Origin: Stramenopiles sp. TOSAG23-6
Lineage: Eukaryota
Assembly: GCA_900128565.1 (NCBI GenBank)
Contig: LT635950.1
Span: 1-34,728, forward strand
Reading direction: 5' to 3'
DNA length: 34,728 nt
Below the pieces are notes generated by a model. It saw only the letters and a program-made list of their open reading frames with translations. It did no database searches and was not told where the DNA came from. How positions within the stretch are numbered: the first letter of the stretch is position 1; each line of letters opens with the position of its first letter. Shown here piece by piece: positions 144 through 26,430 of the stretch. The position numbers and the translations under genes are program-made.

Positions 144-2735
144 TGGAGCATTGCAAGTAAGACCACCAATTGATGTATCCGTGTGTACTCAAGAATATTT
201 ACATGACCTTTATAAAAAAGATGTTAAAGTGATGTATGTTTTCATAATGAATTTTAAATTTATTTTTTTTGGTACGAAATTTTGTACCTAAACAAAGAAT
301 TTTTTTTTTGGAATATATTTTCATAATGAATTTCAATTTTTTTTTTCCGTACAATTTTTTTTTGTACTTTATGAATTTCAAAATGTAAAACATATTTTTT
401 CAAAATACATGCAATGGTTGTCTTTTGGTACAAACACTTTTCTGCCTGTTCAATTAATTGATTTGGAGTTACCACTTAAATCTCTAGATGAAAAAGACTG
501 TTCTACTACGACTACTACTAATAATAATAATAAGAAGAAGAATACAAATGATTCTACTACTATTACTACTAATAATAATACTATTACTACTACTACTAAT
601 AATAATACAAATGATTCTACTACTATTACTAATAATAATAATAATAATACAAATGATTCTACTACTACTACTACTAATAATAATAATAATACAAAGGATA
701 ATATTTTCTTAACTAAGCAATTGAATTGCAACTTAAGCGTATCATGGGACAGTGCGACTGCATCATTATTACGATTTCTGGGAATAGCAAATAGTGATAA
801 AGAGCATGGTATTATTGATGATATAGTAAACAAAACTGTTGATCAAAACAAATTTCATAATTATTATTCTGAAAATCGGTATGAAAATATCTGGTCTAAA
901 AAGCTTCGTACCATTTTAGTACAGATAGCTTGTGAAGGATCAGTAACACATACTACAAAAGTAAATGCAGCTGTTCAAGCATCAGAATTATTAGCAGGTT
1001 TATGCCCTCCACTGATGGAACGTCAACACAATATAGGTGAAAAGAATACAAACCCTAACCCCAATCATTTATCATCAAATATACGAAATACTCCAAATAA
1101 TATTTCCATAAATTATTCACCAAGTACAGATTTTACTACAAATTCAACAAAATCTTTATTATTAACACCTTTTCCACAAGTTCGTATTGGTTCTCCATTA
1201 ACTAATAAAACGAATCGAAGACGATCAAAATCTTTAAATTCAGAAAATGATCATATTAAAAAAGAAAAAACAGTTACAAAATTTGATGATGATGATTTTT
1301 CATTATCGGATAGTGGTAACAAAACTAACCATCACGAAACACCTGTTCAGTTTAGTTTATTCACTAATGATAATAATGATAATTCTACCATGAATGATAA
1401 AAGTCGGAAACGGTTTAGCAGTGCAATGTCGAATATCTCAAATATGTCAATGGAAAGTGATGTAGTTCAAATTGCTAGAGAGCAGTACGTTTTCATCATA
1501 ANTATTTTTTTTNAGAGTCTCTATGCTTTTTCATCATTAATTTTAAATGTATTTATTCATTTTTTTATAACATGAACTTTGGAATGTAACATATTTTTTC
1601 ACAATACATATACAGTAAAGGTATCATCAATGAAGAGGAACTTGACCAAGTTGTAGAGGCAGACCGTCGATGTAGTATTAATGACAACATAGATGGAATG
1701 AAACCAATACACTTATTACATGAATCAGACCAATTAAATGAGTCTTTAGAAGTGAATAATAAATTTCAAAAAAACAATTTAAAATATGAAAAACAAATTG
1801 TACCACCGACTCCACCGCCAACAACAACACGTCCACCACCACCAAGACTTCAAAAAAATGGTATTTCTTTTTCTGGTATCACAATTCGATGGCCTGATGT
1901 TTTAGGTGCAACACAATATGAAGTTCAAATTGGTCATCGATATATGTACGTTTTTCATCATTTAATTTCAAATTTATTATTTTTGTACTGAATCCAAAAG
2001 AATTCAAAAGTTACAAAAACTAACAAATGTTCAATTTGACATTTTTTTCCATAGTTCATTGGGGGTTGGCGTACAGCTGGTGGGGTAAGTAGTATAACAG
2101 CTGCAGCATTTGATAAAGATGATGCAATGAATAATACAGAATTCGATACGAAGGATGATGATAATATATCGAATTCTTTAGTACATTCGCATACCACTCC
2201 AACACGAAATACAGAAAACATACAAAACACACAAAAAACTCTAAAAAACTCTAAAAAAAAAAGTTCGATTACAAGAGCAACCAGTATAACAATAAATACA
2301 TTTTTAATACGTGGTCACTTATTAGAACGAGGGCGTAAGTACATTTGTCGCGTACGAGCTTTTTCAGTATTAGGTGGTTGGAGTGATTATAGCCGAGCAA
2401 GTGACGTCATTGCTTATGAAGGTTTTCCAATACCTGCACCACCAGCTAAAACAATTATTATTCCAGTTTCTCCAAAGGATGACACTGAAAAAATTCAGAT
2501 TTCATTAGGTACGAAACTTCGTACATATCAGCCCAAGTCTAAAGATCAAACAGAAAATAAGAAAAATAATAAAGTAACAACTTCATCTGAAGAACAGGAT
2601 AGCAAAACCCTAACCATAAGACAAACAAATAATAACAGCCCGAATAAAGATGATTCAAATAGTATCAATATTTCAGGTGACGTAAGTGATAGCGGATATA
2701 GCGAATTTGATGAAGATGCAATTCTTGATTTTTAA
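144..2735 (+). CDS. PDZ/FN3 protein, 3' part (copy 1). Exons 144-233, 411-1484, 1610-1945, 2060-2735
   Basis: ORFs 409..1575, 1698..1991 and 2127..2735 are joined in frame by GT-AT introns. FN3 motif spans the last two exons. Thr/Asn low-complexity tract present. Confidence 0.72.
234..410 (+). other. Putative GT-AT intron (177 nt, phase 2)
   Basis: gtg at|GTATGTTTTCATAATG...CATATTTTTTCAAAATACAT|g caa. The next downstream AG (468) is out of phase. Confidence 0.78.
503..692 (+). repeat. Coding (ACT)n/(AAT)n trinucleotide minisatellite encoding Thr/Asn runs
   Basis: Repeated aatacaaatgattctactactattactaataat units encoding NTNDSTTITNNN. Confidence 0.9.
1485..1609 (+). other. Putative GT-AT intron (125 nt, phase 2)
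   Basis: gag ca|GTACGTTTTCATCAT...CATATTTTTTCACAATACAT|a tac carries the 20-nt 3' motif. An in-frame CAG lies 6 nt further (1615), so canonical use is possible here. Confidence 0.65.
1946..2059 (+). other. Putative GT-AT intron (114 nt, phase 2)
   Basis: tat at|GTACGTTTTTCATCAT...ACTAAC...CATTTTTTTCCATAGTTCAT|t ggg. The TAG ending at 2054 would frameshift. The AT ending at 2059 gives FN3-like YEVQIGHRYIGGW. Confidence 0.8.
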
Positions 2736-3457: not shown

Positions 3458-4620
3458 ATGGCATTACAATCAAATAAAATCTCAAAAGAGAATGATTCAT
3501 TACAATCAAATAAAATCTCAAAAGAGAATGATTCAAGTTTCCCACGTCCTCCTCTGCCACATGTAAAGTTACAAACTTCGTCTGCTACAGTCATAGTTTG
3601 CTTACATGGGGGTCATATTACCTCTTGGACGCTAAATGGCAGTGAAATTCTCTTTCTTAGTGAAAAAGCGGTGTTCAAACCTCCAAAAGCAATTCGTGGT
3701 GGAATACCTATATGCTTCCCTCAATTTAGTGATTGTGGACCAATGAAGAAAAGTCATGGGTTTGCACGGACGTTGACATGGACTCATGATAGTGACATCA
3801 TACAACATAGAAATGATAAAGACGAAATAACTTCATGTTCAACTTCGTTGTCTCTTTCCACATTTGTAAAAAGTTGGCCTTACAAGTATAACTTAAAAAT
3901 GCATATTTCAATTACTGAAAACACTTTACAACAAGATTTAATTGTAACAAACAATGGAAAACAAAAATTTGAGTTTACTGCTGTAATTTTACCTTCAATG
4001 ATTTTTTAATTTTTAATTTAAGATTTTCCAAATCTAATATTTCATATATTTTATTGGATACATCATTATCATACAGGCTCTTCATACATATTTTCGTCTA
4101 AACACCAATGCTACAAAGGTTAATGGATTACTTGGATGTACATATTTGGATTCCTTGGATAATCGAACACGAAAAACAGAAAGTGAAAAAGAAATTACAA
4201 TTGAAAATGAGATGGATCGGATTTATCTAAATGCACCTTCAAATATTATTTTACAAGACGATACAACTTGTATCAATGTGTTTTCGGATCATTCATCGAA
4301 TACAAATAATACACAAGGATTTCGTGATGGTGTATTGTGGAATCCTTGGATTGAAAAATCAAAACGCATGTTGGTTTTTCTTACATTTAAAATTATGGTT
4401 AGGGTTAGGGGTTACCCCTCATTTTTTTTTCTACGAAATTTTTACCTAACAAATTTTAAACTTTAAACATATTTTTGTACAAAACATGACTGATTTAAAT
4501 GATGATGAATATCATAATATGATATGTTACGAAGTCGCTCAAATAAATAATAAAATTGTGCTTGACGTTGGCGAAGAGTGGAAAGGATCACAAAAAATTG
4601 TTGTTTCGAAAGTGAAATAA
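3458..4620 (+). CDS. Glucose-6-phosphate 1-epimerase (D-hexose-6-phosphate mutarotase, aldose 1-epimerase family), 316 aa. Exons 3458-3982, 4077-4369, 4488-4620
   Basis: Family motifs LHGGHITSW, LFLSEKAVFKPPKAIRGGIPICFPQF, HGFAR, FTA|ALHTYF, EMDRIY, WNPWIEKSKRM|TDLNDDEYHNMICYE and GEEWKG. Confidence 0.93.
3464..3535 (+). repeat. Perfect 36-bp tandem duplication (LQSNKISKENDS x2)
   Basis: ttacaatcaaataaaatctcaaaagagaatgattca occurs twice in tandem. Confidence 0.95.
3983..4076 (+). other. Canonical GT-AG intron (94 nt, phase 0) in epimerase
   Basis: gct|GTAATT...CTAAT...TACAG|gct restores the conserved FTAALHTYF. Confidence 0.9.
4370..4487 (+). other. Non-canonical GT-AT intron (118 nt, phase 2) in epimerase
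   Basis: cgc at|GTTGGTTTTT...CCTAAC...CATATTTTTGTACAAAACAT|g act gat restores KRMTDLNDDEY. No usable AG acceptor. Confidence 0.87.
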
Positions 4621-4703: not shown

Positions 4704-7263
4704 TTAATCATTATATTGTGTTTTTTGAAAATATTTCATCCATTGAGTTGAACAGCCTCGAGCATTATTGATAATTTTTGTCTTTTGTTTCGTTCTTTGA
4801 CGTTTATGTTTTGCATTTGCTAGTTTGATCTTTGCTAAATTATCATCAAATTTGCTTTTTTTATTTCGTGTTTTTTTACTTTGTCGTGGTACTGCCGGAT
4901 GTCGACTTTTTAAATTATGTGGTACTAAAATTACCTTTTTGTTTTTTTTCTCTTTTCCATTTTGATTTGATGTACTATTTAATGTACTATTTAATTCTCT
5001 ACGAATTGAAGTCTTGGTGTCGTATTTCGTTTTTTCTTCATCGCTCTCATCGTCTGTGACTAATACTTCTTTCAAACCTCGATCAAATAATTCCGATTTC
5101 CTTTCAAATTCTTTTTGTCGTGCAACTCGACGAGGATGCGGTGCTAACTTAGATCCAAGTTGATTTGCTAATAAATAAACATCACCACGCTCCCCACTGC
5201 CAAATGTACAACTTGGTGCTCTTTTAAATCGGGAGTCAAAATGTGAAACAACTTTATCAGGAAAATTTGCAGTTGTTGTTTCAGAATATGATGTAGACAC
5301 ACATATTTTGTGAAAAAATATGCCAAAAAAAAACAAAAATTCGTTAGGTATATAAAATTTGATACAAAAAAAATAATTTCGAAATTCATAATAAAAACAT
5401 ACCCATAGAATTATGAATTACTCGATATAAATCGTCTCTATCTGCAGCACCAAAATCATGATCACATGAAGATTTTCGACGTTTTGCTGCTGCATTATCA
5501 AAAGTTGATGTTACAATTGTAGAGTCGTGCTGATCACTTTTATCTATAAACTGAACAGTATTTAAAACATTTGACAATTTCTCACAATCTTCTCGACTTG
5601 ATTTTCCAAAATCAACACGAGAGGGTGTTCGAAAGCGTGAGTTATGTGTAGTGTAAAATACTTTATGGTAATCAATACTATCATTCACTTGAGACATATC
5701 CTGTGGTAATAAAGCACCTAAATCATTGTGTCGTTTATAAATATCAGATCGTTTTGATTTTCCAAAATCAACAGACGGTGGATTAGGTACACGTGAATTA
5801 TGTTTGGTATAGAATACCTTATTATAATCAACAGAATCACCAAACTCTGACATATCACGAGGTCGAAGTCCACCAAGCAGATTTGCTTGTTTTAACATAT
5901 CATCTCTTGTTGAAGCACCAAAATCAACAGACGGTGGATTAGGTACACGTGAATTATGTTTGGTATAGAATACCTTATTATAATCAACAGAATCACCAAA
6001 CTCTGACATATCACGAGGTCGAAGTCCACCAAGTAGATTTGCATGTTTTAACATCTCTTCTCGGCTTGAAGCACCAAAATCAACACGTGAGGGTGTTCGA
6101 AAACGTGAGTTATGTTCCGTTGTAAACGCTTTATTATAATCTATGGAGTCATTGAACTCTGACATATCTCTAGGTAGTAATGCTCCTAAATCATTATTAC
6201 GAAATTTTATGTCGTCTCGTTGTGAAACACCAAAATCAACACGAGAGGGTGTTCGAAAGCGTGAGTTATGTGTAGTGTAAAATACTTTATGGTAATCAAC
6301 ACTATCATTCACTTGAGACTTATCCTGTGGTAATAAAGCACCTAAATCATTGTGTCGTTTATAAATATCAGATCTTTTTGATTTTCCAAAATCAACAGAT
6401 GGTGGATTAGGTACACGTGAATTATGTTTTGTGTAGAATACCTTATTATAGTCAACTGAATCAATTTCGTCGGATTTATCAATCACACGAGCACCAGGCA
6501 TGCCTGTGGCTAATTTCGCTGCAGAAATTCTTGAAGATGCTCCAAAATCAACACGTGATGGTGTTCGAAAACGTGAGTTATGTTCCGTTGTAAACGCTTT
6601 ATTATAATCTATGGAATCCCCGAATTCTGACATATCTCTAGGTAATGTTTGTTCTAATTCATTGTGTCGTTTATAAATATCAGATCGTTTTGATTTTCCA
6701 AAATCAACAGACGGTGGATTAGGTACACGTGAATTATGTTTGGTATAGAATACCTTATTATAATCAACAGAATCACCAAACTCTGACATATCACGAGGTC
6801 GAAGTCCACCAAGCAGATTTGCTTGTTTTAACATATCATCTCTTGTTGAAGCACCAAAATCAACAGACGGTGGATTAGGTACACGTGAATTATGTTTGGT
6901 ATAGAATACCTTATTATAATCAACAGAATCACCAAACTCTGACATATCACGAGGTCGAAGTCCACCAAGCAGATTTGCATGTTTTAACATATCATCTCGA
7001 CTAGAGGCACCAAAATCCACAGAAGGGGCATTCGGTGTTCGAGATTCTGAATATGTCACTCGTTTTTTGGTGTTTTTGGAAGAAGAGGCTTGTTCTGAAA
7101 AAAAATGTTTTAACTTTTCATCTGCCAACTGTCCTTTTCGTGTTCTTTCATCCAGAGATTTTTTGTAATTGGTTTGTGCAGACTTTGTACGCCTTGCTAT
7201 TGACTCTCTTTCATGCCTTGGGAATGTTTTGTTTGTATCTGGTGACGAATTTGGGCGATTCAT
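4704..7263 (-). CDS. 52-aa tandem-repeat protein (819 aa). Exons 7263-5403, 5302-4704. Function unknown, possibly cytoskeletal or ciliary
   Basis: 625-aa ORF with DFG motifs every 156 bp, joined to the 210-aa ORF by a GT-AT intron. An 11th degenerate repeat spans the junction. Confidence 0.82.
5303..5402 (-). other. Putative GT-AT intron (100 nt, phase 1) in repeat-protein gene (11222-11321 + in copy 2)
   Basis: atg g|GTATGTTTTTATTATG...CCTAAC...CATATTTTTTCACAAAATAT|gt gtg gives a 50-aa DFG-to-TFG unit, against 33 aa with the first in-frame AAG. Confidence 0.78.
5449..7017 (-). repeat. Coding tandem array, 10 x 156 bp
   Basis: In copy 2 the GAT of DFG falls at 9607, 9763, 9919, 10075, 10231, 10387, 10543, 10699, 10855, 11011 and 11167, an exact 156-nt period. 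Confidence 0.95.
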
Positions 7264-8284: not shown

Positions 8285-8298
8285 ATTTGGTACAGATT

Positions 8299-8299
<1 letters not shown>

Positions 8300-8334
<35 letters not shown>
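8300..8334 (+). repeat. Poly(A) tract at unit end
   Basis: About 35 consecutive A, adjacent to both inversion junctions. Confidence 0.95.
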
Positions 8335-8337
<3 letters not shown>

Positions 8338-9360
8338 AATTTGTACCTAACGAACAATCTTGTAATAACAAAGAAGGCAAACAATATGAATCTTGTTGTG
8401 TTAATGTACGTAGTGTATCACCAATTACTTCTAAATCAGTATCAAATACATCAACATCGATAGGGTTAGGCTTTTCAATTACAATTGTATTTTTAGGTGC
8501 ATTACTTTCGTAATGCCATTTATTCTCGTTCAACAAATCTACAGTTTTGTTGTCAATAGTGTCAATAGTATGTAATATCTTGTGTTTGGATGCCCAGTTA
8601 TAGTGATGTTTTTGAGATATACTATGTGTTGTTTTCCAGTCGAGAGAATATGATGAAGTAGAATAAGAAGGTTCCTCTCTAGACAATATATGTTTTTTTT
8701 TCAGTCAAGGAGGTTTGATTCTTTGAAAAACTCTCTTTTTTTACTGAGGTTTGATTCTTTGAAAAACTCTCTTTTTTTACAGAGGTTTGATTCTTTGAAA
8801 AACTCTCTTTTTTTACTGCTTTGGACACGATTTTGTTTTTATCAACCAAATATATATTTGAATTGGGTTTAGAACACACATGTTTATCATCATATAAATT
8901 ATGTAATGGTAAAATGTGATCTGAAATTAATGCTGTTTTGTTTGCAGGATGTTGCTGGGATACAATTTGAGAGTTTTGTTGACTTTTTGACTTTGGACCT
9001 GTTTTTTTCTTCTTTCCTCTTGCTCCACGTTTCTTTTTTTTCTTTTTTTTACTATACAAACGGATATCCAACATAATTGTTGTGTTAAATACAATTATGT
9101 TAATTACCTTTGAACAATGTACAACGTAGTATGATCATGATATTGTGGACTAAAAAGTAGACATTGTTTTGTGTTTGGCCACCACCGGACACGTCAAAGA
9201 AAGACTCAGTCACAAAAATGATGTTTGAAAACACGAAATCAATCGAAATCTAAAAATTGTATCGTACGTTAAAAAATAAGGATAACGTTTCAAAAAAAAA
9301 ATTACTTCTGCTGGCACCAAGTGCTATTATTTCCCTCTGTGTTCACGGAAAAAGTACGAA

Positions 9361-11920
9361 ATGAATCGCCCAAATTCGTCACCAGATACAAACAAAACAT
9401 TCCCAAGGCATGAAAGAGAGTCAATAGCAAGGCGTACAAAGTCTGCACAAACCAATTACAAAAAATCTCTGGATGAAAGAACACGAAAAGGACAGTTGGC
9501 AGATGAAAAGTTAAAACATTTTTTTTCAGAACAAGCCTCTTCTTCCAAAAACACCAAAAAACGAGTGACATATTCAGAATCTCGAACACCGAATGCCCCT
9601 TCTGTGGATTTTGGTGCCTCTAGTCGAGATGATATGTTAAAACATGCAAATCTGCTTGGTGGACTTCGACCTCGTGATATGTCAGAGTTTGGTGATTCTG
9701 TTGATTATAATAAGGTATTCTATACCAAACATAATTCACGTGTACCTAATCCACCGTCTGTTGATTTTGGTGCTTCAACAAGAGATGATATGTTAAAACA
9801 AGCAAATCTGCTTGGTGGACTTCGACCTCGTGATATGTCAGAGTTTGGTGATTCTGTTGATTATAATAAGGTATTCTATACCAAACATAATTCACGTGTA
9901 CCTAATCCACCGTCTGTTGATTTTGGAAAATCAAAACGATCTGATATTTATAAACGACACAATGAATTAGAACAAACATTACCTAGAGATATGTCAGAAT
10001 TCGGGGATTCCATAGATTATAATAAAGCGTTTACAACGGAACATAACTCACGTTTTCGAACACCATCACGTGTTGATTTTGGAGCATCTTCAAGAATTTC
10101 TGCAGCGAAATTAGCCACAGGCATGCCTGGTGCTCGTGTGATTGATAAATCCGACGAAATTGATTCAGTTGACTATAATAAGGTATTCTACACAAAACAT
10201 AATTCACGTGTACCTAATCCACCATCTGTTGATTTTGGAAAATCAAAAAGATCTGATATTTATAAACGACACAATGATTTAGGTGCTTTATTACCACAGG
10301 ATAAGTCTCAAGTGAATGATAGTGTTGATTACCATAAAGTATTTTACACTACACATAACTCACGCTTTCGAACACCCTCTCGTGTTGATTTTGGTGTTTC
10401 ACAACGAGACGACATAAAATTTCGTAATAATGATTTAGGAGCATTACTACCTAGAGATATGTCAGAGTTCAATGACTCCATAGATTATAATAAAGCGTTT
10501 ACAACGGAACATAACTCACGTTTTCGAACACCCTCACGTGTTGATTTTGGTGCTTCAAGCCGAGAAGAGATGTTAAAACATGCAAATCTACTTGGTGGAC
10601 TTCGACCTCGTGATATGTCAGAGTTTGGTGATTCTGTTGATTATAATAAGGTATTCTATACCAAACATAATTCACGTGTACCTAATCCACCGTCTGTTGA
10701 TTTTGGTGCTTCAACAAGAGATGATATGTTAAAACAAGCAAATCTGCTTGGTGGACTTCGACCTCGTGATATGTCAGAGTTTGGTGATTCTGTTGATTAT
10801 AATAAGGTATTCTATACCAAACATAATTCACGTGTACCTAATCCACCGTCTGTTGATTTTGGAAAATCAAAACGATCTGATATTTATAAACGACACAATG
10901 ATTTAGGTGCTTTATTACCACAGGATATGTCTCAAGTGAATGATAGTATTGATTACCATAAAGTATTTTACACTACACATAACTCACGCTTTCGAACACC
11001 CTCTCGTGTTGATTTTGGAAAATCAAGTCGAGAAGATTGTGAGAAATTGTCAAATGTTTTAAATACTGTTCAGTTTATAGATAAAAGTGATCAGCACGAC
11101 TCTACAATTGTAACATCAACTTTTGATAATGCAGCAGCAAAACGTCGAAAATCTTCATGTGATCATGATTTTGGTGCTGCAGATAGAGACGATTTATATC
11201 GAGTAATTCATAATTCTATGGGTATGTTTTTATTATGAATTTCGAAATTATTTTTTTTGTATCAAATTTTATATACCTAACGAATTTTTGTTTTTTTTTG
11301 GCATATTTTTTCACAAAATATGTGTGTCTACATCATATTCTGAAACAACAACTGCAAATTTTCCTGATAAAGTTGTTTCACATTTTGACTCCCGATTTAA
11401 AAGAGCACCAAGTTGTACATTTGGCAGTGGGGAGCGTGGTGATGTTTATTTATTAGCAAATCAACTTGGATCTAAGTTAGCACCGCATCCTCGTCGAGTT
11501 GCACGACAAAAAGAATTTGAAAGGAAATCGGAATTATTTGATCGAGGTTTGAAAGAAGTATTAGTCACAGACGATGAGAGCGATGAAGAAAAAACGAAAT
11601 ACGACACCAAGACTTCAATTCGTAGAGAATTAAATAGTACATTAAATAGTACATCAAATCAAAATGGAAAAGAGAAAAAAAACAAAAAGGTAATTTTAGT
11701 ACCACATAATTTAAAAAGTCGACATCCGGCAGTACCACGACAAAGTAAAAAAACACGAAATAAAAAAAGCAAATTTGATGATAATTTAGCAAAGATCAAA
11801 CTAGCAAATGCAAAACATAAACGTCAAAGAACGAAACAAAAGACAAAAATTATCAATAATGCTCGAGGCTGTTCAACTCAATGGATGAAATATTTTCAAA
11901 AAACACAATATAATGATTAA
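9361..11920 (+). CDS. 52-aa tandem-repeat protein (copy 2). Exons 9361-11221, 11322-11920
   Basis: Inverted copy of 4704-7263. Confidence 0.8.
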
Positions 11921-12003
11921 AAAATTATAAAACCCTACGTAACCCTCCCAATGGATGAAATATTTTCAAAAAACACAATATTATGACTTTAAAAATTATA
12001 AAT

Positions 12004-13166
12004 TTATTTCACTTTCGAAACAACAATTTTTTGTGATCCTTTCCACTCTTCGCCAACGTCAAGCACAATTTTATTATTTATTTGAGCGACTTCGTAACAT
12101 ATCATATTATGATATTCATCATCATTTAAATCAGTCATGTTTTGTACAAAAATATGTTTAAAGTTTAAAATTTGTTAGGTAAAAATTTCGTAGAAAAAAA
12201 AATGAGGGGTAACCCCTAACCCTAACCATAATTTTAAATGTAAGAAAAACCAACATGCGTTTTGATTTTTCAATCCAAGGATTCCACAATACACCATCAC
12301 GAAATCCTTGTGTATTATTTGTATTCGATGAATGATCCGAAAACACATTGATACAAGTTGTATCGTCTTGTAAAATAATATTTGAAGGTGCATTTAGATA
12401 AATCCGATCCATCTCATTTTCAATTGTAATTTCTTTTTCACTTTCTGTTTTTCGTGTTCGATTATCCAAGGAATCCAAATATGTACATCCAAGTAATCCA
12501 TTAACCTTTGTAGCATTGGTGTTTAGACGAAAATATGTATGAAGAGCCTGTATGATAATGATGTATCCAATAAAATATATGAAATATTAGATTTGGAAAA
12601 TCTTAAATTAAAAATTAAAAAATCATTGAAGGTAAAATTACAGCAGTAAACTCAAATTTTTGTTTTCCATTGTTTGTTACAATTAAATCTTGTTGTAAAG
12701 TGTTTTCAGTAATTGAAATATGCATTTTTAAGTTATACTTGTAAGGCCAACTTTTTACAAATGTGGAAAGAGACAACGAAGTTGAACATGAAGTTATTTC
12801 GTCTTTATCATTTCTATGTTGTATGATGTCACTATCATGAGTCCATGTCAACGTCCGTGCAAACCCATGACTTTTCTTCATTGGTCCACAATCACTAAAT
12901 TGAGGGAAGCATATAGGTATTCCACCACGAATTGCTTTTGGAGGTTTGAACACCGCTTTTTCACTAAGAAAGAGAATTTCACTGCCATTTAGCGTCCAAG
13001 AGGTAATATGACCCCCATGTAAGCAAACTATGACTGTAGCAGACGAAGTTTGTAACTTTACATGTGGCAGAGGAGGACGTGGGAAACTTGAATCATTCTC
13101 TTTTGAGATTTTATTTGATTGTAATGAATCATTCTCTTTTGAGATTTTATTTGATTGTAATGCCAT
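12004..13166 (-). CDS. Glucose-6-phosphate 1-epimerase (copy 2)
   Basis: Inverted copy of 3458-4620. Confidence 0.88.
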
Positions 13167-13888
13167 TTGTGTAAACGAATACTTTAGAAAACTTAGTGCT
13201 AGTACACAATTTGCAGTATACTTCGGGGTACCCACTCGTGATGTTTTTTGAAACTTTTTTCGTGGAAATGCCAGCCCTAACCCTAGTCCGTATTTAAAAA
13301 AGTATTTTTTCAGATCCGGTGATTTTCTTTTTTCTCTCGGCGTTAAATTAAAGACTACCTCATCCTATATACTACTATTCAGTACTACTATATATACGAC
13401 TATACACTGTATTACATATTGATACACTACTATACTACAATAATTTTACTAATAGAGAGATTCATCTAATAATTTCTTGACGAATAGTGTCAAAAAAATG
13501 TTTGGTCTTAAAACACTAGTATTTAGTATTGTTGTTTTAATAGGAATTGGTCTTTATTTTGGTATTGTTTCGATGGAAACACCTTCCAAAACGAAAACAT
13601 TAATTAAAACAAAGAAATTAGAAGCTCATGAAAGTGAGCCTCAACAACCAAAGAGTTTAATGCCAAGCTTTCGCTTTCGTAACTTTAGCACTTATTGAAT
13701 GACTATCAATTTTACACAGGGTTCCATAGAAACTTATTTCTATACAGAAAGTTTTCACTATTATATTTTGAGTTATATACGTTATATATTGAGTGGGTCA
13801 TAGGTAATATATACCTTTGATTGGGCAGCCATAATAAAACTAATAAAATACATATGATATTGATAATATTGTTTTATTAAGAAGCGTA

Positions 13889-16800
13889 TTAAAAATCAAG
13901 AATTGCATCTTCATCAAATTCGCTATATCCGCTATCACTTACGTCACCTGAAATATTGATACTATTTGAATCATCTTTATTCGGGCTGTTATTATTTGTT
14001 TGTCTTATGGTTAGGGTTTTGCTATCCTGTTCTTCAGATGAAGTTGTTACTTTATTATTTTTCTTATTTTCTGTTTGATCTTTAGACTTGGGCTGATATG
14101 TACGAAGTTTCGTACCTAATGAAATCTGAATTTTTTCAGTGTCATCCTTTGGAGAAACTGGAATAATAATTGTTTTAGCTGGTGGTGCAGGTATTGGAAA
14201 ACCTTCATAAGCAATGACGTCACTTGCTCGGCTATAATCACTCCAACCACCTAATACTGAAAAAGCTCGTACGCGACAAATGTACTTACGCCCTCGTTCT
14301 AATAAGTGACCACGTATTAAAAATGTATTTATTGTTATACTGGTTGCTCTTGTAATCGAACTTTTTTTTTTAGAGTTTTTTAGAGTTTTTTGTGTGTTTT
14401 GTATGTTTTCTGTATTTCGTGTTGGAGTGGTATGCGAATGTACTAAAGAATTCGATATATTATCATCATCCTTCGTATCGAATTCTGTATTATTCATTGC
14501 ATCATCTTTATCAAATGCTGCAGCTGTTATACTACTTACCCCACCAGCTGTACGCCAACCCCCAATGAACTATGGAAAAAAATGTCAAATTGAACATTTG
14601 TTAGTTTTTGTAACTTTTGAATTCTTTTGGATTCAGTACAAAAATAATAAATTTGAAATTAAATGATGAAAAACGTACATATATCGATGACCAATTTGAA
14701 CTTCATATTGTGTTGCACCTAAAACATCAGGCCATCGAATTGTGATACCAGAAAAAGAAATACCATTTTTTTGAAGTCTTGGTGGTGGTGGACGTGTTGT
14801 TGTTGGCGGTGGAGTCGGTGGTACAATTTGTTTTTCATATTTTAAATTGTTTTTTTGAAATTTATTATTCACTTCTAAAGACTCATTTAATTGGTCTGAT
14901 TCATGTAATAAGTGTATTGGTTTCATTCCATCTATGTTGTCATTAATACTACATCGACGGTCTGCCTCTACAACTTGGTCAAGTTCCTCTTCATTGATGA
15001 TACCTTTACTGTATATGTATTGTGAAAAAATATGTTACATTCCAAAGTTCATGTTATAAAAAAATGAATAAATACATTTAAAATTAATGATGAAAAAGCA
15101 TAGAGACTCTNAAAAAAAATANTTATGATGAAAACGTACTGCTCTCTAGCAATTTGAACTACATCACTTTCCATTGACATATTTGAGATATTCGACATTG
15201 CACTGCTAAACCGTTTCCGACTTTTATCATTCATGGTAGAATTATCATTATTATCATTAGTGAATAAACTAAACTGAACAGGTGTTTCGTGATGGTTAGT
15301 TTTGTTACCACTATCCGATAATGAAAAATCATCATCATCAAATTTTGTAACTGTTTTTTCTTTTTTAATATGATCATTTTCTGAATTTAAAGATTTTGAT
15401 CGTCTTCGATTCGTTTTATTAGTTAATGGAGAACCAATACGAACTTGTGGAAAAGGTGTTAATAATAAAGATTTTGTTGAATTTGTAGTAAAATCTGTAC
15501 TTGGTGAATAATTTATGGAAATATTATTTGGAGTATTTCGTATATTTGATGATAAATGATTGGGGTTAGGGTTTGTATTCTTTTCACCTATATTGTGTTG
15601 ACGTTCCATCAGTGGAGGGCATAAACCTGCTAATAATTCTGATGCTTGAACAGCTGCATTTACTTTTGTAGTATGTGTTACTGATCCTTCACAAGCTATC
15701 TGTACTAAAATGGTACGAAGCTTTTTAGACCAGATATTTTCATACCGATTTTCAGAATAATAATTATGAAATTTGTTTTGATCAACAGTTTTGTTTACTA
15801 TATCATCAATAATACCATGCTCTTTATCACTATTTGCTATTCCCAGAAATCGTAATAATGATGCAGTCGCACTGTCCCATGATACGCTTAAGTTGCAATT
15901 CAATTGCTTAGTTAAGAAAATATTATCCTTTGTATTATTATTATTATTAGTAGTAGTAGTAGTAGAATCATTTGTATTATTATTATTATTATTAGTAATA
16001 GTAGTAGAATCATTTGTATTATTATTAGTAGTAGTAGTAATAGTATTATTATTAGTAGTAATAGTAGTAGAATCATTTGTATTCTTCTTCTTATTATTAT
16101 TATTAGTAGTAGTCGTAGTAGAACAGTCTTTTTCATCTAGAGATTTAAGTGGTAACTCCAAATCAATTAATTGAACAGGCAGAAAAGTGTTTGTACCAAA
16201 AGACAACCATTGCATGTATTTTGAAAAAATATGTTTTACATTTTGAAATTCATAAAGTACAAAAAAAAATTGTACGGAAAAAAAAAATTGAAATTCATTA
16301 TGAAAATATATTCCAAAAAAAAAATTCTTTGTTTAGGTACAAAATTTCGTACCAAAAAAAATAAATTTAAAATTCATTATGAAAACATACATCACTTTAA
16401 CATCTTTTTTATAAAGGTCATGTAAATATTCTTGAGTACACACGGATACATCAATTGGTGGTCTTACTTGCAATGCTCCAATGTTTTGTAAAAAAATATG
16501 TCATTTTTTTTTGTTAGGTACAAATTTTTATAATAAAAAAATACGTACAAAAACCAAACAAAAAAATACATCGGATTTGGATTATCTAGAAAAAAACATT
16601 CGAAATTGATGGTGCGTAAACGTACATAGATGCTAATGCTATGGCTGTAGGTAATGTAATTGGAATACATCCAGTGATATTCATCATAGTTGAACTATTT
16701 GTTTTTGAATGTATCGTTTTAGATGTAGATCCCAAATTCAACATGCTTGAACGTCTTAATTTTGGTGTTGTATTCTTACTTGTATTTAACATACTTGAAC

Positions 16801-17753
16801 TTCTTGGTTTTGGTGTTGTAGTATTAGTATTAGTATAATGTGAAAATGTATCATCATTGGTATGCAAATTCGATATTAAGTCACTATTGAATTTTGTAAC
16901 TAAAGATTTTTTTGTACCTAATGAATTTCGAATTTGTTGTGACTCTTCACTTAAACCTGCTCGTCGCATTGCTAACATCTCCATAGCATCTCGCATTTGT
17001 TTAAGCTCAATCTCTTGTGCAGCAATTCGATTTTCTTGAGCAATAATGCGCAATTGTAAAGCTTTTTGCATTTGACACGTGTCATTACTATTAGGGTTAT
17101 CGATGTTTGAGTCAGGAGAATGAAATGAAAGTTGAGAATTTCGAGAGTACCGTGGTGATATTGGTGGTGTTGTTGGTGGTGATGGCATTTGTTTCATTAT
17201 CTCTTGTGGTGACTTATTTAGTGTATTTCGTGTTTTATACGACATCGTAGAATCATTGTCCATCATTAAAGTAGTAAATTCAATAGTCCGTTGATACATA
17301 TTTCGTTCATGTATTGTGGAAAAATATGTTGTATTTGAAAATTGTCAATAAAAAATCCTTAGGTACAAAATGTGGCGCAAAAATATAAATAAAAATTGTT
17401 ACGTACGAAATTTACGAAATTTCATACGAAAAATACATAAATTTAAAATTCATGATGAAAACGTACATGTAAATACTCCACAATATCTGCAAATTTCCAA
17501 TGTAAAACTTTTGTACTATCAATTGTTTGTATCCACATTCCAGGTGATACACCCTTTTTCTTTAACTCATTAATTCTATTGAGTACAGTAGTCACTGTGT
17601 TATTTCGTGTTTTATTACTAGGGTTAGGATTTCCCACAATTTTTGTAGGCGTTTTTTTGCCTTCATTAAAATTTTCAATCTGCGCTCCTCTTCTATGCAA
17701 ACCACACTTTAATTGCAAACCCAATGCACCAGAAGGGACATTAACAATAACAG
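13889..17753 (-). CDS. PDZ-domain and fibronectin type III domain protein, 5'-partial. Exons 17753-17467, 17308-16626, 16480-16391, 16213-15140, 15014-14679, 14564-13889 (most complete copy)
   Basis: N-terminal VIVNVPSGALGLQL...GVSPGMWIQTIDSTKVLHWKFADIVEYLH|ERNMYQRTIEF resembles a PDZ fold (GLGL-type loop, alphaB, betaF). C-terminal ITIRWPDVLGATQYEVQ...GGW...LERGRKYICRVRAFSVLGGWSDYS matches the FN3 pattern. Five GT-AT introns join all ORF segments in frame to TAA. Domain calls are by eye. Confidence 0.75.
16481..16625 (-). other. Putative GT-AT intron (145 nt, phase 2); positions 1-143 are this intron minus its first GT
   Basis: tct at|GTACGTTTAC...CCTAAC...CATATTTTTTTACAAAACAT|t gga gives ALAS-I-GALQ. 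An in-frame AAG 18 nt downstream is an alternative acceptor. Confidence 0.72.
17309..17466 (-). other. Putative non-canonical GT-AT intron (158 nt, phase 0)
   Basis: Minus strand cat|GTACGTTTTCATCATG...CATATTTTTCCACAATACAT|gaa joins EYLH to ERNMYQ within the PDZ-like domain. The internal AAG (17358) is out of frame. Confidence 0.8.
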
Positions 17754-17896
17754 ACGTTTACGCACCATCAATTTCGAATGTTTTTTTCTAGATAATCCAA
17801 ATCCGATGTATTTTTTTGTTTGGTTTTTGTACGTATTTTTTTATTATAAAAATTTGTACCTAACAAAAAAAAATGACATATTTTTTTACAAAACAT

Positions 17897-20488
17897 TGGA
17901 GCATTGCAAGTAAGACCACCAATTGATGTATCCGTGTGTACTCAAGAATATTTACATGACCTTTATAAAAAAGATGTTAAAGTGATGTATGTTTTCATAA
18001 TGAATTTTAAATTTATTTTTTTTGGTACGAAATTTTGTACCTAAACAAAGAATTTTTTTTTTGGAATATATTTTCATAATGAATTTCAATTTTTTTTTTC
18101 CGTACAATTTTTTTTTGTACTTTATGAATTTCAAAATGTAAAACATATTTTTTCAAAATACATGCAATGGTTGTCTTTTGGTACAAACACTTTTCTGCCT
18201 GTTCAATTAATTGATTTGGAGTTACCACTTAAATCTCTAGATGAAAAAGACTGTTCTACTACGACTACTACTAATAATAATAATAAGAAGAAGAATACAA
18301 ATGATTCTACTACTATTACTACTAATAATAATACTATTACTACTACTACTAATAATAATACAAATGATTCTACTACTATTACTAATAATAATAATAATAA
18401 TACAAATGATTCTACTACTACTACTACTAATAATAATAATAATACAAAGGATAATATTTTCTTAACTAAGCAATTGAATTGCAACTTAAGCGTATCATGG
18501 GACAGTGCGACTGCATCATTATTACGATTTCTGGGAATAGCAAATAGTGATAAAGAGCATGGTATTATTGATGATATAGTAAACAAAACTGTTGATCAAA
18601 ACAAATTTCATAATTATTATTCTGAAAATCGGTATGAAAATATCTGGTCTAAAAAGCTTCGTACCATTTTAGTACAGATAGCTTGTGAAGGATCAGTAAC
18701 ACATACTACAAAAGTAAATGCAGCTGTTCAAGCATCAGAATTATTAGCAGGTTTATGCCCTCCACTGATGGAACGTCAACACAATATAGGTGAAAAGAAT
18801 ACAAACCCTAACCCCAATCATTTATCATCAAATATACGAAATACTCCAAATAATATTTCCATAAATTATTCACCAAGTACAGATTTTACTACAAATTCAA
18901 CAAAATCTTTATTATTAACACCTTTTCCACAAGTTCGTATTGGTTCTCCATTAACTAATAAAACGAATCGAAGACGATCAAAATCTTTAAATTCAGAAAA
19001 TGATCATATTAAAAAAGAAAAAACAGTTACAAAATTTGATGATGATGATTTTTCATTATCGGATAGTGGTAACAAAACTAACCATCACGAAACACCTGTT
19101 CAGTTTAGTTTATTCACTAATGATAATAATGATAATTCTACCATGAATGATAAAAGTCGGAAACGGTTTAGCAGTGCAATGTCGAATATCTCAAATATGT
19201 CAATGGAAAGTGATGTAGTTCAAATTGCTAGAGAGCAGTACGTTTTCATCATAANTATTTTTTTTNAGAGTCTCTATGCTTTTTCATCATTAATTTTAAA
19301 TGTATTTATTCATTTTTTTATAACATGAACTTTGGAATGTAACATATTTTTTCACAATACATATACAGTAAAGGTATCATCAATGAAGAGGAACTTGACC
19401 AAGTTGTAGAGGCAGACCGTCGATGTAGTATTAATGACAACATAGATGGAATGAAACCAATACACTTATTACATGAATCAGACCAATTAAATGAGTCTTT
19501 AGAAGTGAATAATAAATTTCAAAAAAACAATTTAAAATATGAAAAACAAATTGTACCACCGACTCCACCGCCAACAACAACACGTCCACCACCACCAAGA
19601 CTTCAAAAAAATGGTATTTCTTTTTCTGGTATCACAATTCGATGGCCTGATGTTTTAGGTGCAACACAATATGAAGTTCAAATTGGTCATCGATATATGT
19701 ACGTTTTTCATCATTTAATTTCAAATTTATTATTTTTGTACTGAATCCAAAAGAATTCAAAAGTTACAAAAACTAACAAATGTTCAATTTGACATTTTTT
19801 TCCATAGTTCATTGGGGGTTGGCGTACAGCTGGTGGGGTAAGTAGTATAACAGCTGCAGCATTTGATAAAGATGATGCAATGAATAATACAGAATTCGAT
19901 ACGAAGGATGATGATAATATATCGAATTCTTTAGTACATTCGCATACCACTCCAACACGAAATACAGAAAACATACAAAACACACAAAAAACTCTAAAAA
20001 ACTCTAAAAAAAAAAGTTCGATTACAAGAGCAACCAGTATAACAATAAATACATTTTTAATACGTGGTCACTTATTAGAACGAGGGCGTAAGTACATTTG
20101 TCGCGTACGAGCTTTTTCAGTATTAGGTGGTTGGAGTGATTATAGCCGAGCAAGTGACGTCATTGCTTATGAAGGTTTTCCAATACCTGCACCACCAGCT
20201 AAAACAATTATTATTCCAGTTTCTCCAAAGGATGACACTGAAAAAATTCAGATTTCATTAGGTACGAAACTTCGTACATATCAGCCCAAGTCTAAAGATC
20301 AAACAGAAAATAAGAAAAATAATAAAGTAACAACTTCATCTGAAGAACAGGATAGCAAAACCCTAACCATAAGACAAACAAATAATAACAGCCCGAATAA
20401 AGATGATTCAAATAGTATCAATATTTCAGGTGACGTAAGTGATAGCGGATATAGCGAATTTGATGAAGATGCAATTCTTGATTTTTAA
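17897..20488 (+). CDS. PDZ/FN3 protein, 3' part (copy 3)
   Basis: Copy of 144-2735. Confidence 0.65.
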
Positions 20489-21210
20489 TACGCTTCTTAA
20501 TAAAACAATATTATCAATATCATATGTATTTTATTAGTTTTATTATGGCTGCCCAATCAAAGGTATATATTACCTATGACCCACTCAATATATAACGTAT
20601 ATAACTCAAAATATAATAGTGAAAACTTTCTGTATAGAAATAAGTTTCTATGGAACCCTGTGTAAAATTGATAGTCATTCAATAAGTGCTAAAGTTACGA
20701 AAGCGAAAGCTTGGCATTAAACTCTTTGGTTGTTGAGGCTCACTTTCATGAGCTTCTAATTTCTTTGTTTTAATTAATGTTTTCGTTTTGGAAGGTGTTT
20801 CCATCGAAACAATACCAAAATAAAGACCAATTCCTATTAAAACAACAATACTAAATACTAGTGTTTTAAGACCAAACATTTTTTTGACACTATTCGTCAA
20901 GAAATTATTAGATGAATCTCTCTATTAGTAAAATTATTGTAGTATAGTAGTGTATCAATATGTAATACAGTGTATAGTCGTATATATAGTAGTACTGAAT
21001 AGTAGTATATAGGATGAGGTAGTCTTTAATTTAACGCCGAGAGAAAAAAGAAAATCACCGGATCTGAAAAAATACTTTTTTAAATACGGACTAGGGTTAG
21101 GGCTGGCATTTCCACGAAAAAAGTTTCAAAAAACATCACGAGTGGGTACCCCGAAGTATACTGCAAATTGTGTACTAGCACTAAGTTTTCTAAAGTATTC
21201 GTTTACACAA

Positions 21211-22373
21211 ATGGCATTACAATCAAATAAAATCTCAAAAGAGAATGATTCATTACAATCAAATAAAATCTCAAAAGAGAATGATTCAAGTTTCCCACGT
21301 CCTCCTCTGCCACATGTAAAGTTACAAACTTCGTCTGCTACAGTCATAGTTTGCTTACATGGGGGTCATATTACCTCTTGGACGCTAAATGGCAGTGAAA
21401 TTCTCTTTCTTAGTGAAAAAGCGGTGTTCAAACCTCCAAAAGCAATTCGTGGTGGAATACCTATATGCTTCCCTCAATTTAGTGATTGTGGACCAATGAA
21501 GAAAAGTCATGGGTTTGCACGGACGTTGACATGGACTCATGATAGTGACATCATACAACATAGAAATGATAAAGACGAAATAACTTCATGTTCAACTTCG
21601 TTGTCTCTTTCCACATTTGTAAAAAGTTGGCCTTACAAGTATAACTTAAAAATGCATATTTCAATTACTGAAAACACTTTACAACAAGATTTAATTGTAA
21701 CAAACAATGGAAAACAAAAATTTGAGTTTACTGCTGTAATTTTACCTTCAATGATTTTTTAATTTTTAATTTAAGATTTTCCAAATCTAATATTTCATAT
21801 ATTTTATTGGATACATCATTATCATACAGGCTCTTCATACATATTTTCGTCTAAACACCAATGCTACAAAGGTTAATGGATTACTTGGATGTACATATTT
21901 GGATTCCTTGGATAATCGAACACGAAAAACAGAAAGTGAAAAAGAAATTACAATTGAAAATGAGATGGATCGGATTTATCTAAATGCACCTTCAAATATT
22001 ATTTTACAAGACGATACAACTTGTATCAATGTGTTTTCGGATCATTCATCGAATACAAATAATACACAAGGATTTCGTGATGGTGTATTGTGGAATCCTT
22101 GGATTGAAAAATCAAAACGCATGTTGGTTTTTCTTACATTTAAAATTATGGTTAGGGTTAGGGGTTACCCCTCATTTTTTTTTCTACGAAATTTTTACCT
22201 AACAAATTTTAAACTTTAAACATATTTTTGTACAAAACATGACTGATTTAAATGATGATGAATATCATAATATGATATGTTACGAAGTCGCTCAAATAAA
22301 TAATAAAATTGTGCTTGACGTTGGCGAAGAGTGGAAAGGATCACAAAAAATTGTTGTTTCGAAAGTGAAATAA
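21211..22373 (+). CDS. Glucose-6-phosphate 1-epimerase (copy 3)
   Basis: Direct copy of 3458-4620. Confidence 0.88.
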
Positions 22374-22456
22374 ATTTATAATTTTTAAAGTCATAATATT
22401 GTGTTTTTTGAAAATATTTCATCCATTGGGAGGGTTACGTAGGGTTTTATAATTTT

Positions 22457-25016
22457 TTAATCATTATATTGTGTTTTTTGAAAATATTTCATCCATTGAG
22501 TTGAACAGCCTCGAGCATTATTGATAATTTTTGTCTTTTGTTTCGTTCTTTGACGTTTATGTTTTGCATTTGCTAGTTTGATCTTTGCTAAATTATCATC
22601 AAATTTGCTTTTTTTATTTCGTGTTTTTTTACTTTGTCGTGGTACTGCCGGATGTCGACTTTTTAAATTATGTGGTACTAAAATTACCTTTTTGTTTTTT
22701 TTCTCTTTTCCATTTTGATTTGATGTACTATTTAATGTACTATTTAATTCTCTACGAATTGAAGTCTTGGTGTCGTATTTCGTTTTTTCTTCATCGCTCT
22801 CATCGTCTGTGACTAATACTTCTTTCAAACCTCGATCAAATAATTCCGATTTCCTTTCAAATTCTTTTTGTCGTGCAACTCGACGAGGATGCGGTGCTAA
22901 CTTAGATCCAAGTTGATTTGCTAATAAATAAACATCACCACGCTCCCCACTGCCAAATGTACAACTTGGTGCTCTTTTAAATCGGGAGTCAAAATGTGAA
23001 ACAACTTTATCAGGAAAATTTGCAGTTGTTGTTTCAGAATATGATGTAGACACACATATTTTGTGAAAAAATATGCCAAAAAAAAACAAAAATTCGTTAG
23101 GTATATAAAATTTGATACAAAAAAAATAATTTCGAAATTCATAATAAAAACATACCCATAGAATTATGAATTACTCGATATAAATCGTCTCTATCTGCAG
23201 CACCAAAATCATGATCACATGAAGATTTTCGACGTTTTGCTGCTGCATTATCAAAAGTTGATGTTACAATTGTAGAGTCGTGCTGATCACTTTTATCTAT
23301 AAACTGAACAGTATTTAAAACATTTGACAATTTCTCACAATCTTCTCGACTTGATTTTCCAAAATCAACACGAGAGGGTGTTCGAAAGCGTGAGTTATGT
23401 GTAGTGTAAAATACTTTATGGTAATCAATACTATCATTCACTTGAGACATATCCTGTGGTAATAAAGCACCTAAATCATTGTGTCGTTTATAAATATCAG
23501 ATCGTTTTGATTTTCCAAAATCAACAGACGGTGGATTAGGTACACGTGAATTATGTTTGGTATAGAATACCTTATTATAATCAACAGAATCACCAAACTC
23601 TGACATATCACGAGGTCGAAGTCCACCAAGCAGATTTGCTTGTTTTAACATATCATCTCTTGTTGAAGCACCAAAATCAACAGACGGTGGATTAGGTACA
23701 CGTGAATTATGTTTGGTATAGAATACCTTATTATAATCAACAGAATCACCAAACTCTGACATATCACGAGGTCGAAGTCCACCAAGTAGATTTGCATGTT
23801 TTAACATCTCTTCTCGGCTTGAAGCACCAAAATCAACACGTGAGGGTGTTCGAAAACGTGAGTTATGTTCCGTTGTAAACGCTTTATTATAATCTATGGA
23901 GTCATTGAACTCTGACATATCTCTAGGTAGTAATGCTCCTAAATCATTATTACGAAATTTTATGTCGTCTCGTTGTGAAACACCAAAATCAACACGAGAG
24001 GGTGTTCGAAAGCGTGAGTTATGTGTAGTGTAAAATACTTTATGGTAATCAACACTATCATTCACTTGAGACTTATCCTGTGGTAATAAAGCACCTAAAT
24101 CATTGTGTCGTTTATAAATATCAGATCTTTTTGATTTTCCAAAATCAACAGATGGTGGATTAGGTACACGTGAATTATGTTTTGTGTAGAATACCTTATT
24201 ATAGTCAACTGAATCAATTTCGTCGGATTTATCAATCACACGAGCACCAGGCATGCCTGTGGCTAATTTCGCTGCAGAAATTCTTGAAGATGCTCCAAAA
24301 TCAACACGTGATGGTGTTCGAAAACGTGAGTTATGTTCCGTTGTAAACGCTTTATTATAATCTATGGAATCCCCGAATTCTGACATATCTCTAGGTAATG
24401 TTTGTTCTAATTCATTGTGTCGTTTATAAATATCAGATCGTTTTGATTTTCCAAAATCAACAGACGGTGGATTAGGTACACGTGAATTATGTTTGGTATA
24501 GAATACCTTATTATAATCAACAGAATCACCAAACTCTGACATATCACGAGGTCGAAGTCCACCAAGCAGATTTGCTTGTTTTAACATATCATCTCTTGTT
24601 GAAGCACCAAAATCAACAGACGGTGGATTAGGTACACGTGAATTATGTTTGGTATAGAATACCTTATTATAATCAACAGAATCACCAAACTCTGACATAT
24701 CACGAGGTCGAAGTCCACCAAGCAGATTTGCATGTTTTAACATATCATCTCGACTAGAGGCACCAAAATCCACAGAAGGGGCATTCGGTGTTCGAGATTC
24801 TGAATATGTCACTCGTTTTTTGGTGTTTTTGGAAGAAGAGGCTTGTTCTGAAAAAAAATGTTTTAACTTTTCATCTGCCAACTGTCCTTTTCGTGTTCTT
24901 TCATCCAGAGATTTTTTGTAATTGGTTTGTGCAGACTTTGTACGCCTTGCTATTGACTCTCTTTCATGCCTTGGGAATGTTTTGTTTGTATCTGGTGACG
25001 AATTTGGGCGATTCAT
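22457..25016 (-). CDS. 52-aa tandem-repeat protein (copy 3)
   Basis: Direct copy of 4704-7263. Confidence 0.78.
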
Positions 25017-26051
25017 TTCGTACTTTTTCCGTGAACACAGAGGGAAATAATAGCACTTGGTGCCAGCAGAAGTAATTTTTTTTTTGAAACGTTATCCTTA
25101 TTTTTTAACGTACGATACAATTTTTAGATTTCGATTGATTTCGTGTTTTCAAACATCATTTTTGTGACTGAGTCTTTCTTTGACGTGTCCGGTGGTGGCC
25201 AAACACAAAACAATGTCTACTTTTTAGTCCACAATATCATGATCATACTACGTTGTACATTGTTCAAAGGTAATTAACATAATTGTATTTAACACAACAA
25301 TTATGTTGGATATCCGTTTGTATAGTAAAAAAAAGAAAAAAAAGAAACGTGGAGCAAGAGGAAAGAAGAAAAAAACAGGTCCAAAGTCAAAAAGTCAACA
25401 AAACTCTCAAATTGTATCCCAGCAACATCCTGCAAACAAAACAGCATTAATTTCAGATCACATTTTACCATTACATAATTTATATGATGATAAACATGTG
25501 TGTTCTAAACCCAATTCAAATATATATTTGGTTGATAAAAACAAAATCGTGTCCAAAGCAGTAAAAAAAGAGAGTTTTTCAAAGAATCAAACCTCTGTAA
25601 AAAAAGAGAGTTTTTCAAAGAATCAAACCTCAGTAAAAAAAGAGAGTTTTTCAAAGAATCAAACCTCCTTGACTGAAAAAAAAACATATATTGTCTAGAG
25701 AGGAACCTTCTTATTCTACTTCATCATATTCTCTCGACTGGAAAACAACACATAGTATATCTCAAAAACATCACTATAACTGGGCATCCAAACACAAGAT
25801 ATTACATACTATTGACACTATTGACAACAAAACTGTAGATTTGTTGAACGAGAATAAATGGCATTACGAAAGTAATGCACCTAAAAATACAATTGTAATT
25901 GAAAAGCCTAACCCTATCGATGTTGATGTATTTGATACTGATTTAGAAGTAATTGGTGATACACTACGTACATTAACACAACAAGATTCATATTGTTTGC
26001 CTTCTTTGTTATTACAAGATTGTTCGTTAGGTACAAAATTTGGTACAGATT

Positions 26052-26389: not shown

Positions 26390-26391
26390 TT

Positions 26392-26430
<39 letters not shown>

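Follow-up and report, generated by a model that had tools for sequence, protein, structure and literature searches.

How can a gene hold introns that begin with GT and end without AG beside an ordinary GT-AG intron, and do such introns descend from one another? This question is raised by a stretch of DNA of 34,728 bases, the whole of which is called the window here, and in particular by an intron at 17309..17466 on its minus strand. A sequence-only reading had proposed that this intron and six others, described as GT-AT introns, form one related family of introner or MITE-like origin, with selection on an extended splice signal named as the alternative cause. Bulk gain of introns is best explained by introners, and to our knowledge nearly all described introner families use GT-AG.

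Organization of the window

A repeat search revealed that the window is one unit of ~9.4 kb present four times in inverted copies that are 100 % identical. Complementary arms (100 % identity) were found at 1-8339 and 26390-34728, at 8340-16638 and 17739-26037, and at 1-8284 and 8340-16623. The unit is composed of an arm of ~8.3 kb and a unique loop of 1,100 nt (16639-17738), with alternating orientation, and its copies join near 8284-8340, 16638/16639, 17738/17739 and 26093-26389. The last of these junctions is a run of N that forms one centre of the scaffold, while the first hairpin turn is a poly(A) run of ~41 nt. The positions of N are identical across all copies of the unit, including both N inside one of the introns (i2). 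An amplification chimera or an error of scaffolding is the most likely source of the fourfold inverted arrangement, and a natural palindrome is disfavoured. Since the four copies are identical, the window holds only seven distinct family introns and one canonical intron. The biologically continuous order is that of the minus strand over 8340-17760, where one gene runs from the loop into the arm. The GC content of the window is ~31 %. Its sequence is best represented in two very small runs from a single sample, and a seawater DNA run from another study contains one third of the window's words; the source organism is an AT-rich marine microbial eukaryote.

The unit contains a long gene, which comprises 1,051 codons once its introns are removed and gave no Pfam match, a glucose-6-phosphate 1-epimerase gene (Aldose_epim, E 6e-19), a gene for a protein with 52-aa repeats and two further small frames. 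The repeat protein gene (5403-7262, minus strand; copy 23157-25016, minus strand) lies on the other strand. It encodes about ten repeats with a 156-nt period, two units of which are 100 % identical; it matched no Pfam family, and its single relative in a large protein collection was P0121 (35 % identity, 691 aa). In the protein search, the relatives of an epimerase exon reached at most 48 % identity, and the exon between introns i2 and i3 had no relative. The last gene of the unit (7490-8339, plus strand) shifts frame near 7920-7945, adjoining an A-run, which may reflect a homopolymer error or an additional small intron. The 9.4-kb unit contained no transposase-like frame, and no Rfam family matched it up to an E value of 0.1.

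Telomere-like motifs (CCTAACCC / GGGTTAGG) were also observed, with 17 hits compared with 0.23 expected. They correspond to five distinct sites (1054-1061, 3341-3348, 4402-4409, 8154-8161 and 17621-17628) plus copies; three sites are coding (N-P-N-P), one lies ahead of the epimerase start codon and one is located in the second epimerase intron as (TTAGGG)2.

Evidence that the segments are introns

Five of the seven family introns interrupt the long gene: iU, the focal intron (17309..17466, minus strand, 158 nt), i0 (16481..16625, minus strand, 145 nt), i1 (234..410, plus strand, 177 nt; copies 16214-16390, 17987-18163 and 34319-34495), i2 (1485..1609, plus strand, 125 nt) and i3 (1946..2054, plus strand, 108-111 nt). 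The removal of all five yielded a single frame of 1,051 codons, for which the removal of iU is required, whereas the same stretch contained 50-106 stops per frame when left unspliced.

The epimerase gene carries two introns of different kinds, the first (iE1) at 3983..4076 (plus strand, 94 nt, phase 0; copy 21736-21829) and the second (iE2) at 4370..4487 (plus strand, 118 nt; copy 22123-22240). Comparison with eight homologues placed the iE1 junction between FEFTA and ALHTYF, and in seven of the eight the aligned pieces on either side of iE2 met between KRM and TDL. These junctions fixed iE1 as GT..AG and iE2 as 118 nt enclosed by two ATG triplets. In the gene for the 52-aa-repeat protein, the intron iR (5303..5402, minus strand, 100 nt; copy 11222-11321) is flanked on both sides by sequence to which P0121 aligns, with five residues opposite 18 exon bases. 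P0121 has one continuous frame over the iR site, in a contig that may be DNA or RNA.

Contigs of four runs (X3, X6, X7 and X10) were placed on 11000-15109, a region that takes in iR, iE2, i3 and the 3' part of i2. On this region, the RNA-library contigs of X6 and X7 included no joint over any intron, X10 contributed no contig, and one RNA-library contig (record 15) extended 8 nt into i2 and is therefore unspliced RNA or DNA. Besides exons, contigs of X6 and X7 covered intergenic stretches at 13097-13557 and 13775-14188, which lie upstream of the epimerase and over a small antisense frame; either the libraries contain some DNA, or these spacers may be transcribed. By the evidence of the sequence the segments are introns, and they would be spliced out of RNA.

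Splice borders

The description of these introns as GT-AT held for six of the seven introns and failed for i3. GT..AT fits six introns, including iR, where it is in frame, and AT..AC fits four of the seven; i3 fits neither. GT..AT is the only reading compatible with six of seven. Intron i3 is in frame only as GT..TA (equivalent to TA..AG) or as AT..AG, since GT..AG and GT..AT break the frame. A canonical AG end was not recovered for the family, in which only i2 could use one, namely the CAG at 1615, 6 nt beyond its GT..AT end. At the junction of iE2 that the homologues fix, no AG end is possible, and neither iU nor i1 shows an AG where the cut restores the frame or in the next 60 bases. Because AT or ATG is present at both ends of iU (ATG), i0 (AT), i1 and iE2 (ATG), the readings GT..AT and AT..AC are equally possible in these four, and they and the intermediate readings give the same product. 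In view of the alternatives for i3 and i2, the term GT-AT introns serves well as a rough label but does not hold as a rule.

We found end letters repeated in four to five of the seven introns, and these were always AT or ATG, with no variable target duplication. The repeat is absent in i2, where the preceding exon ends in CA, and in iR because the preceding exon ends in GG. As had been noted, the exon before GT ends in AT in five of the seven (iU, i0, i1, i3 and iE2; not i2 or iR), and phase 2 likewise occurs in five (i0, i1, i2, i3 and iE2), with iU in phase 0 and iR in phase 1. Inverted similarity between the ends amounted at most to ATGTAY/RTACAT and a T/A run. When the pairing of the ends was compared with 300 shuffles using RNAduplex, z ranged from -0.98 to +0.62 across all seven introns, and a convincing terminal inverted repeat was found in none of them.

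Shared blocks and family relationship

The seven introns, in three unrelated genes, have three blocks in common: a 5' block of ~30 nt, (AT)GTAYGTTTTCATNATGAATTTYAAATT; a middle block with a T-run, GTAC and usually ACCTAAC; and a 3' block of 21 nt, ACATATTTTTTCAMAAWAYAT. The donor is GTAYGT in six of the seven introns and GTTGGT in iE2. In five of the seven, the branch-like ACCTAAC motif precedes the 3' end by 30-120 nt; i3 has AACTAAC instead. In all six block-bearing introns an A is present at position -9 from the cut, with a T-run ahead of it.

The 5' block profile was matched best by the focal intron, iU, whose exon ends in TTACAT, followed by GTACGTTTTCATCATGAATTTTAAATTTAT, GTACCTAAGG and ACATATTTTTCCACAATACAT in this order, and the next exon begins with GAACG. 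The first 30 bases of iU and i1 are identical at 28 positions, the differences being at positions 4 and 13, and the related 5' ends that had been pointed out at 1485 (i2), 1946 (i3) and 11222 were found again; the last is the inverted copy of 5402 (iR). In i0 and iE2 the 5' ends have diverged, while the middle and 3' blocks are as in the other members. The former consists of a divergent 5' block (GTACGTTTACGCACCATCAATTTCGAATG; profile match E 0.067), then TTTGTACCTAAC and a 3' block (ACATATTTTTTTACAAAACAT; E 7e-05), and the latter of a divergent 5' end (GTTGGTTTTTCTTACATTT) followed by TTTTTACCTAAC and the 3' block ACATATTTTTGTACAAAACAT. The 5' block of i3 contains one extra T, its branch-like motif is AAACTAAC and its 3' block, GACATTTTTTTCCATAG, is degenerate. 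Both i1 (at 313-333) and i2 carry a second 5' block in their interior, in each case with GT lost; i2 also contains two N and is without the ACCTAA motif. In contrast to the family introns, iE1 is an ordinary GTAATT..ACAG intron without family blocks and served as an internal control; its presence in the epimerase gene means that the organism is able to splice without the blocks.

Both terminal patterns occurred far more often in the window than in shuffled sequence, with 17 matches compared with 0.11 expected for the 5' pattern and 21 compared with 0.04 for the 3' pattern; these are raw counts over four unit copies and are therefore inflated about fourfold. In a profile search of the 9.4-kb unit, the blocks were confined to the ends of introns and the interiors of i1 and i2, in the sense orientation of the host gene in all seven cases. 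Intergenic or antisense copies, which the sequence-only reading had suggested looking for, were absent from the 9.4-kb unit at E below 0.1 in the same search.

Pairwise local alignment among the seven introns reached z 14.7 against shuffles. After 12 nt were trimmed from each end, z still reached 9.2, and the interiors thus show similarity beyond splice signals, the lack of which had been named as evidence against a family. The values for iE1 against the family introns were -0.9 to 4.1. A seven-way alignment gave a consensus spanning most of a ~100-nt core, made up of a 5' block (~31 nt), a T-run with GTA, AAATTT, ACnTAAC and a 21-22-nt 3' block; iR, i3 and iE2 are scarcely longer than this core.

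The conserved blocks occupy the positions of splice signals, and some of the likeness could thus be due to selection. The additional 5' blocks inside i1 and i2 are not predicted by a pure splice signal. The alignments, the core and the internal copies, together with the contig pile-ups described below, point to common descent of the family. We regard the proposal that the seven introns form one related family, with likeness beyond splice signals, as supported by comparison of the trimmed introns, their ~100-nt core, the internal 5' blocks and the pile-ups in X3, none of which iE1 shares.

A 12-mer, GTACCTAAYGAA, that includes the branch-like motif of the family was observed nine times in the window compared with 0.02 expected. 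Its distinct sites are at 2501-2512 (minus strand), 8270-8281 (minus strand) and 16914-16925 (plus strand), plus copies. All three are exon sites that are antisense to the coding strand and encode S-L-G-T, and their flanks are otherwise unlike; they may be a peptide motif that recurs, or else remnants of antisense family sequence that exons have taken up.

Copies in environmental contigs and public collections

The seawater DNA run X3 yielded 71 contigs on the region, of which 55 were 90-95 % alike and 42 matched it only in part. Their summed depth was concentrated on the introns, with 208 and 46 at iR, 22 at the 5' end of i3, 24 at the 3' part of i2 and 10 at the 3' part of iE2, compared with 0-5 in the remaining bins. 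The loose ends of these contigs beside the blocks were unrelated to one another. Because the blocks pile up in X3 with unrelated flanks, the family is taken to be multi-copy, with the reservation that the pile-ups were collected at 90 % likeness in a metagenome and that part of them may stem from related organisms. In three contigs, a 5' block was joined to a branch or 3' block over only 8-19 other letters, and an X6 contig of 193 nt represented another complete family member. Four of five further 5' flanks among the environmental contigs have AT ahead of GTAYG. One X3 contig (record 7), from the one other strain encountered, covered this very locus, i3 included, with four substitutions in 493 bases, one of them inside i3.

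Pattern scans of three public collections gave no relatives, and their matches are probably due to chance. In metagenome contigs, an exact-pattern scan found 31 loci, none of which had a 3' block or ACCTAA within 400 nt, and these matches are therefore attributed to chance. The same kind of scan of viral contigs found six loci with the 3' pattern, none with an upstream donor, and one locus with the 5' pattern. In genome contigs, 40 loci fitted a loose three-part pattern; all were prokaryote by title and were also taken as chance. When the donor string was searched in the literature on introns, no relevant title was present among the matches listed.

Discussion

The seven segments are probably real introns of a multi-copy, introner-like, spliceosomal family with a non-AG 3' end in an AT-rich marine microbial eukaryote. 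According to this model, each copy would be an AT-rich element of 100-180 nt that consists of three conserved blocks and brings along its own signals, a classical GTAYGT donor and a CTAAC-type branch site. A classical donor, a branch motif and a 3' block at a fixed distance were all found, and the element would therefore carry its own donor and branch site. The 3' block would set the cut at a fixed distance, with an A 9 nt before the cut, and would thereby replace AG, and the spliceosome would excise the element from RNA. The copies would have arisen when an ancestral element duplicated or transposed into AT or ATG sites, and would later have diverged through substitutions, indels and internal duplication. 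Insertion into AT or ATG sites would explain both the AT or ATG repeated at the ends and the ambiguous cut.

The main rival is a transformed minor-spliceosome-like system, which we consider unlikely. On this reading the blocks would be lineage-specific signals of such a system whose likeness is maintained chiefly by selection, whether or not transposons spread them, as has been proposed for Physarum; the 3' block would serve as a branch site at a fixed short distance from the 3' end, whose final bases would be free. U12-type introns have the donor RTATCCTTT and, some 10-15 nt before the 3' end, the branch sequence TCCTTAAC, and minor-type introns are thought to select their 3' end by distance. 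The two intron classes in the epimerase gene, with iE1 a plain GT-AG intron and iE2 a block-bearing one without AG, are consistent with this reading, as are the fixed distance of the 3' block, with A at -9 in six of six and a preceding T-run, and the fact that six of the seven introns are not in phase 0. At the sequence level, TTTTTTCAC agreed with the U12-type branch consensus, TTCCTTAAC, at six of nine positions, and GTATGTTTT agreed with the U12-type donor RTATCCTTT at seven of nine. However, the donor, GTATGT, lacks CC at +5 and +6 and fits the major type perfectly, and a U12 donor was thus not found. A better branch match is ACCTAAC, placed in five of the seven at 30-120 nt from the 3' end, and 30 conserved 5' bases together with internal block copies exceed what pairing with an snRNA would need.

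A second, hitherto undescribed intron code is a more speculative reading, and we regard it as improbable. Blocks of ~30 nt (5') and 21 nt (3') would define the intron, the cut would follow an invariant A by 9 nt whatever the last two bases, which are AT in most, and a transformed minor spliceosome or a major spliceosome with an altered 3' factor would read the code, which would have spread as a mobile element.

Splicing outside the usual spliceosome, either as in the nonconventional introns of euglenids and diplonemids or by ciliate-like excision at the DNA level, is very unlikely. The non-AG borders and the short direct repeats over both borders would suit it, the source data set is small and marine, and many predicted non-canonical introns are reported in marine diplonemid single-cell genomes (PMC12621601, PMC6221363). 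However, pairing of the ends, the defining trait of nonconventional introns, did not exceed that of shuffles, and all seven introns carry a classical GTAYGT donor and CTAAC motif in the sense orientation. Excision at the DNA level is further disfavoured by X3, in which i3 is present and no contig with an excised segment was found. It is a weaker point that no euglenozoan was present among the named proteins of the 120 best epimerase homologues listed. Two related candidates were rejected: ciliate-type DNA elimination, given the lack of TA ends, the standard code and the sense donor, and a group II intron or another known RNA family, given that Rfam yielded no match. That the segments are not biology at all, but an assembly or amplification artefact of a data set of single-cell size, or pseudogenes, is highly improbable and already largely refuted: the scaffold does consist of four identical inverted copies, including the N positions, with an N gap and a poly(A) hairpin, but the introns lie inside each copy away from the copy junctions, the independent X3 locus has i3 in place, and removal of the introns restores frames and homology exactly.

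We compared the introner-like family with repeated intron families described elsewhere. The introner elements of Amoebophrya are reported to be defined by inverted repeats of 8-20 nt, which fold into a hairpin that brings the exons together, and to have no fixed terminal dinucleotides (Farhat et al. 2021, PMC7789003). They resemble the present family in being a repeated intron family of a marine protist with non-GT-AG borders, no internal transposase and canonical introns alongside. Direct repeats overlap the borders in both, with 3-5 nt in Amoebophrya and 2-3 nt here, and the cut is ambiguous. The present introns differ in the chance-level pairing of their ends, the constant GTAYGT and the long direct blocks (30 and 21 nt).

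The expanded U12-type introns of Physarum polycephalum have been proposed to originate from an element with inverted ends and a 2-nt direct repeat (10.1101/2020.10.12.336362). Their reported features include a GT-AT border pair, conserved extended 5' and near-3' motifs and ordinary introns alongside, all of which are also present here. The motifs themselves differ: Physarum has RTATCYTT and TTTGA 10-12 nt from the end, whereas the present family has GTAYGTTTT and a T-run with YAC and the A at -9. The non-canonical MITE-derived introns of the tunicate Fritillaria borealis, as summarized elsewhere (PMC11282704), share with our introns the AT or AC ends, the absence of AG and the persistence of canonical GT-AG introns, and species specificity and transposon hallmarks may also be in common. 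They have an AG start (AG-AC, AG-AT) after an exonic TAC, in contrast to the GT start after an exonic AT here.

The nonconventional introns of euglenids and the non-canonical introns of hemistasiid and marine diplonemids are reported (PMC12621601, PMC6221363, PMC11282704) to have non-canonical borders likewise, with direct repeats where intron and exon meet. Further points in common are that a MITE origin is suspected and that the context is one of marine single-cell genomes. Those introns, however, lack a U1-type donor and depend on a stable, often G+C-rich pairing of the ends, whereas our introns have a classical donor and pair at chance level. The classical introners of Micromonas, Aureococcus and fungi, also mentioned in two of these papers (PMC7789003, PMC11282704), are short, sense-oriented and confined to genes, as are the introns described here, and come with their own splice signals, as these probably do. 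They are canonical GT-AG introns, while the present family has a non-AG end. Judged against these descriptions, the family differs from known repeated non-canonical introns in its constant GT donor, the lack of end pairing, the long direct blocks and the fixed non-AG end, where the comparison with marine diplonemid introns runs through citing papers only and similar introns may be described.

For uncultured marine protists, assemblies from single cells and metagenomes are annotated under the assumption of GT-AG, and gene callers that require GT-AG would break most genes of an organism with such introns. How new introns come about is an old question, on which a family with a GT donor and a non-AG end beside GT-AG introns bears. 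The family also bears on the extent to which a spliceosome can do without the 3' splice-site rule and on whether the element itself provides the replacement 3' signal. If the second intron code were true, this organism would offer a natural case of a transposon family carrying a complete non-AG splicing code.
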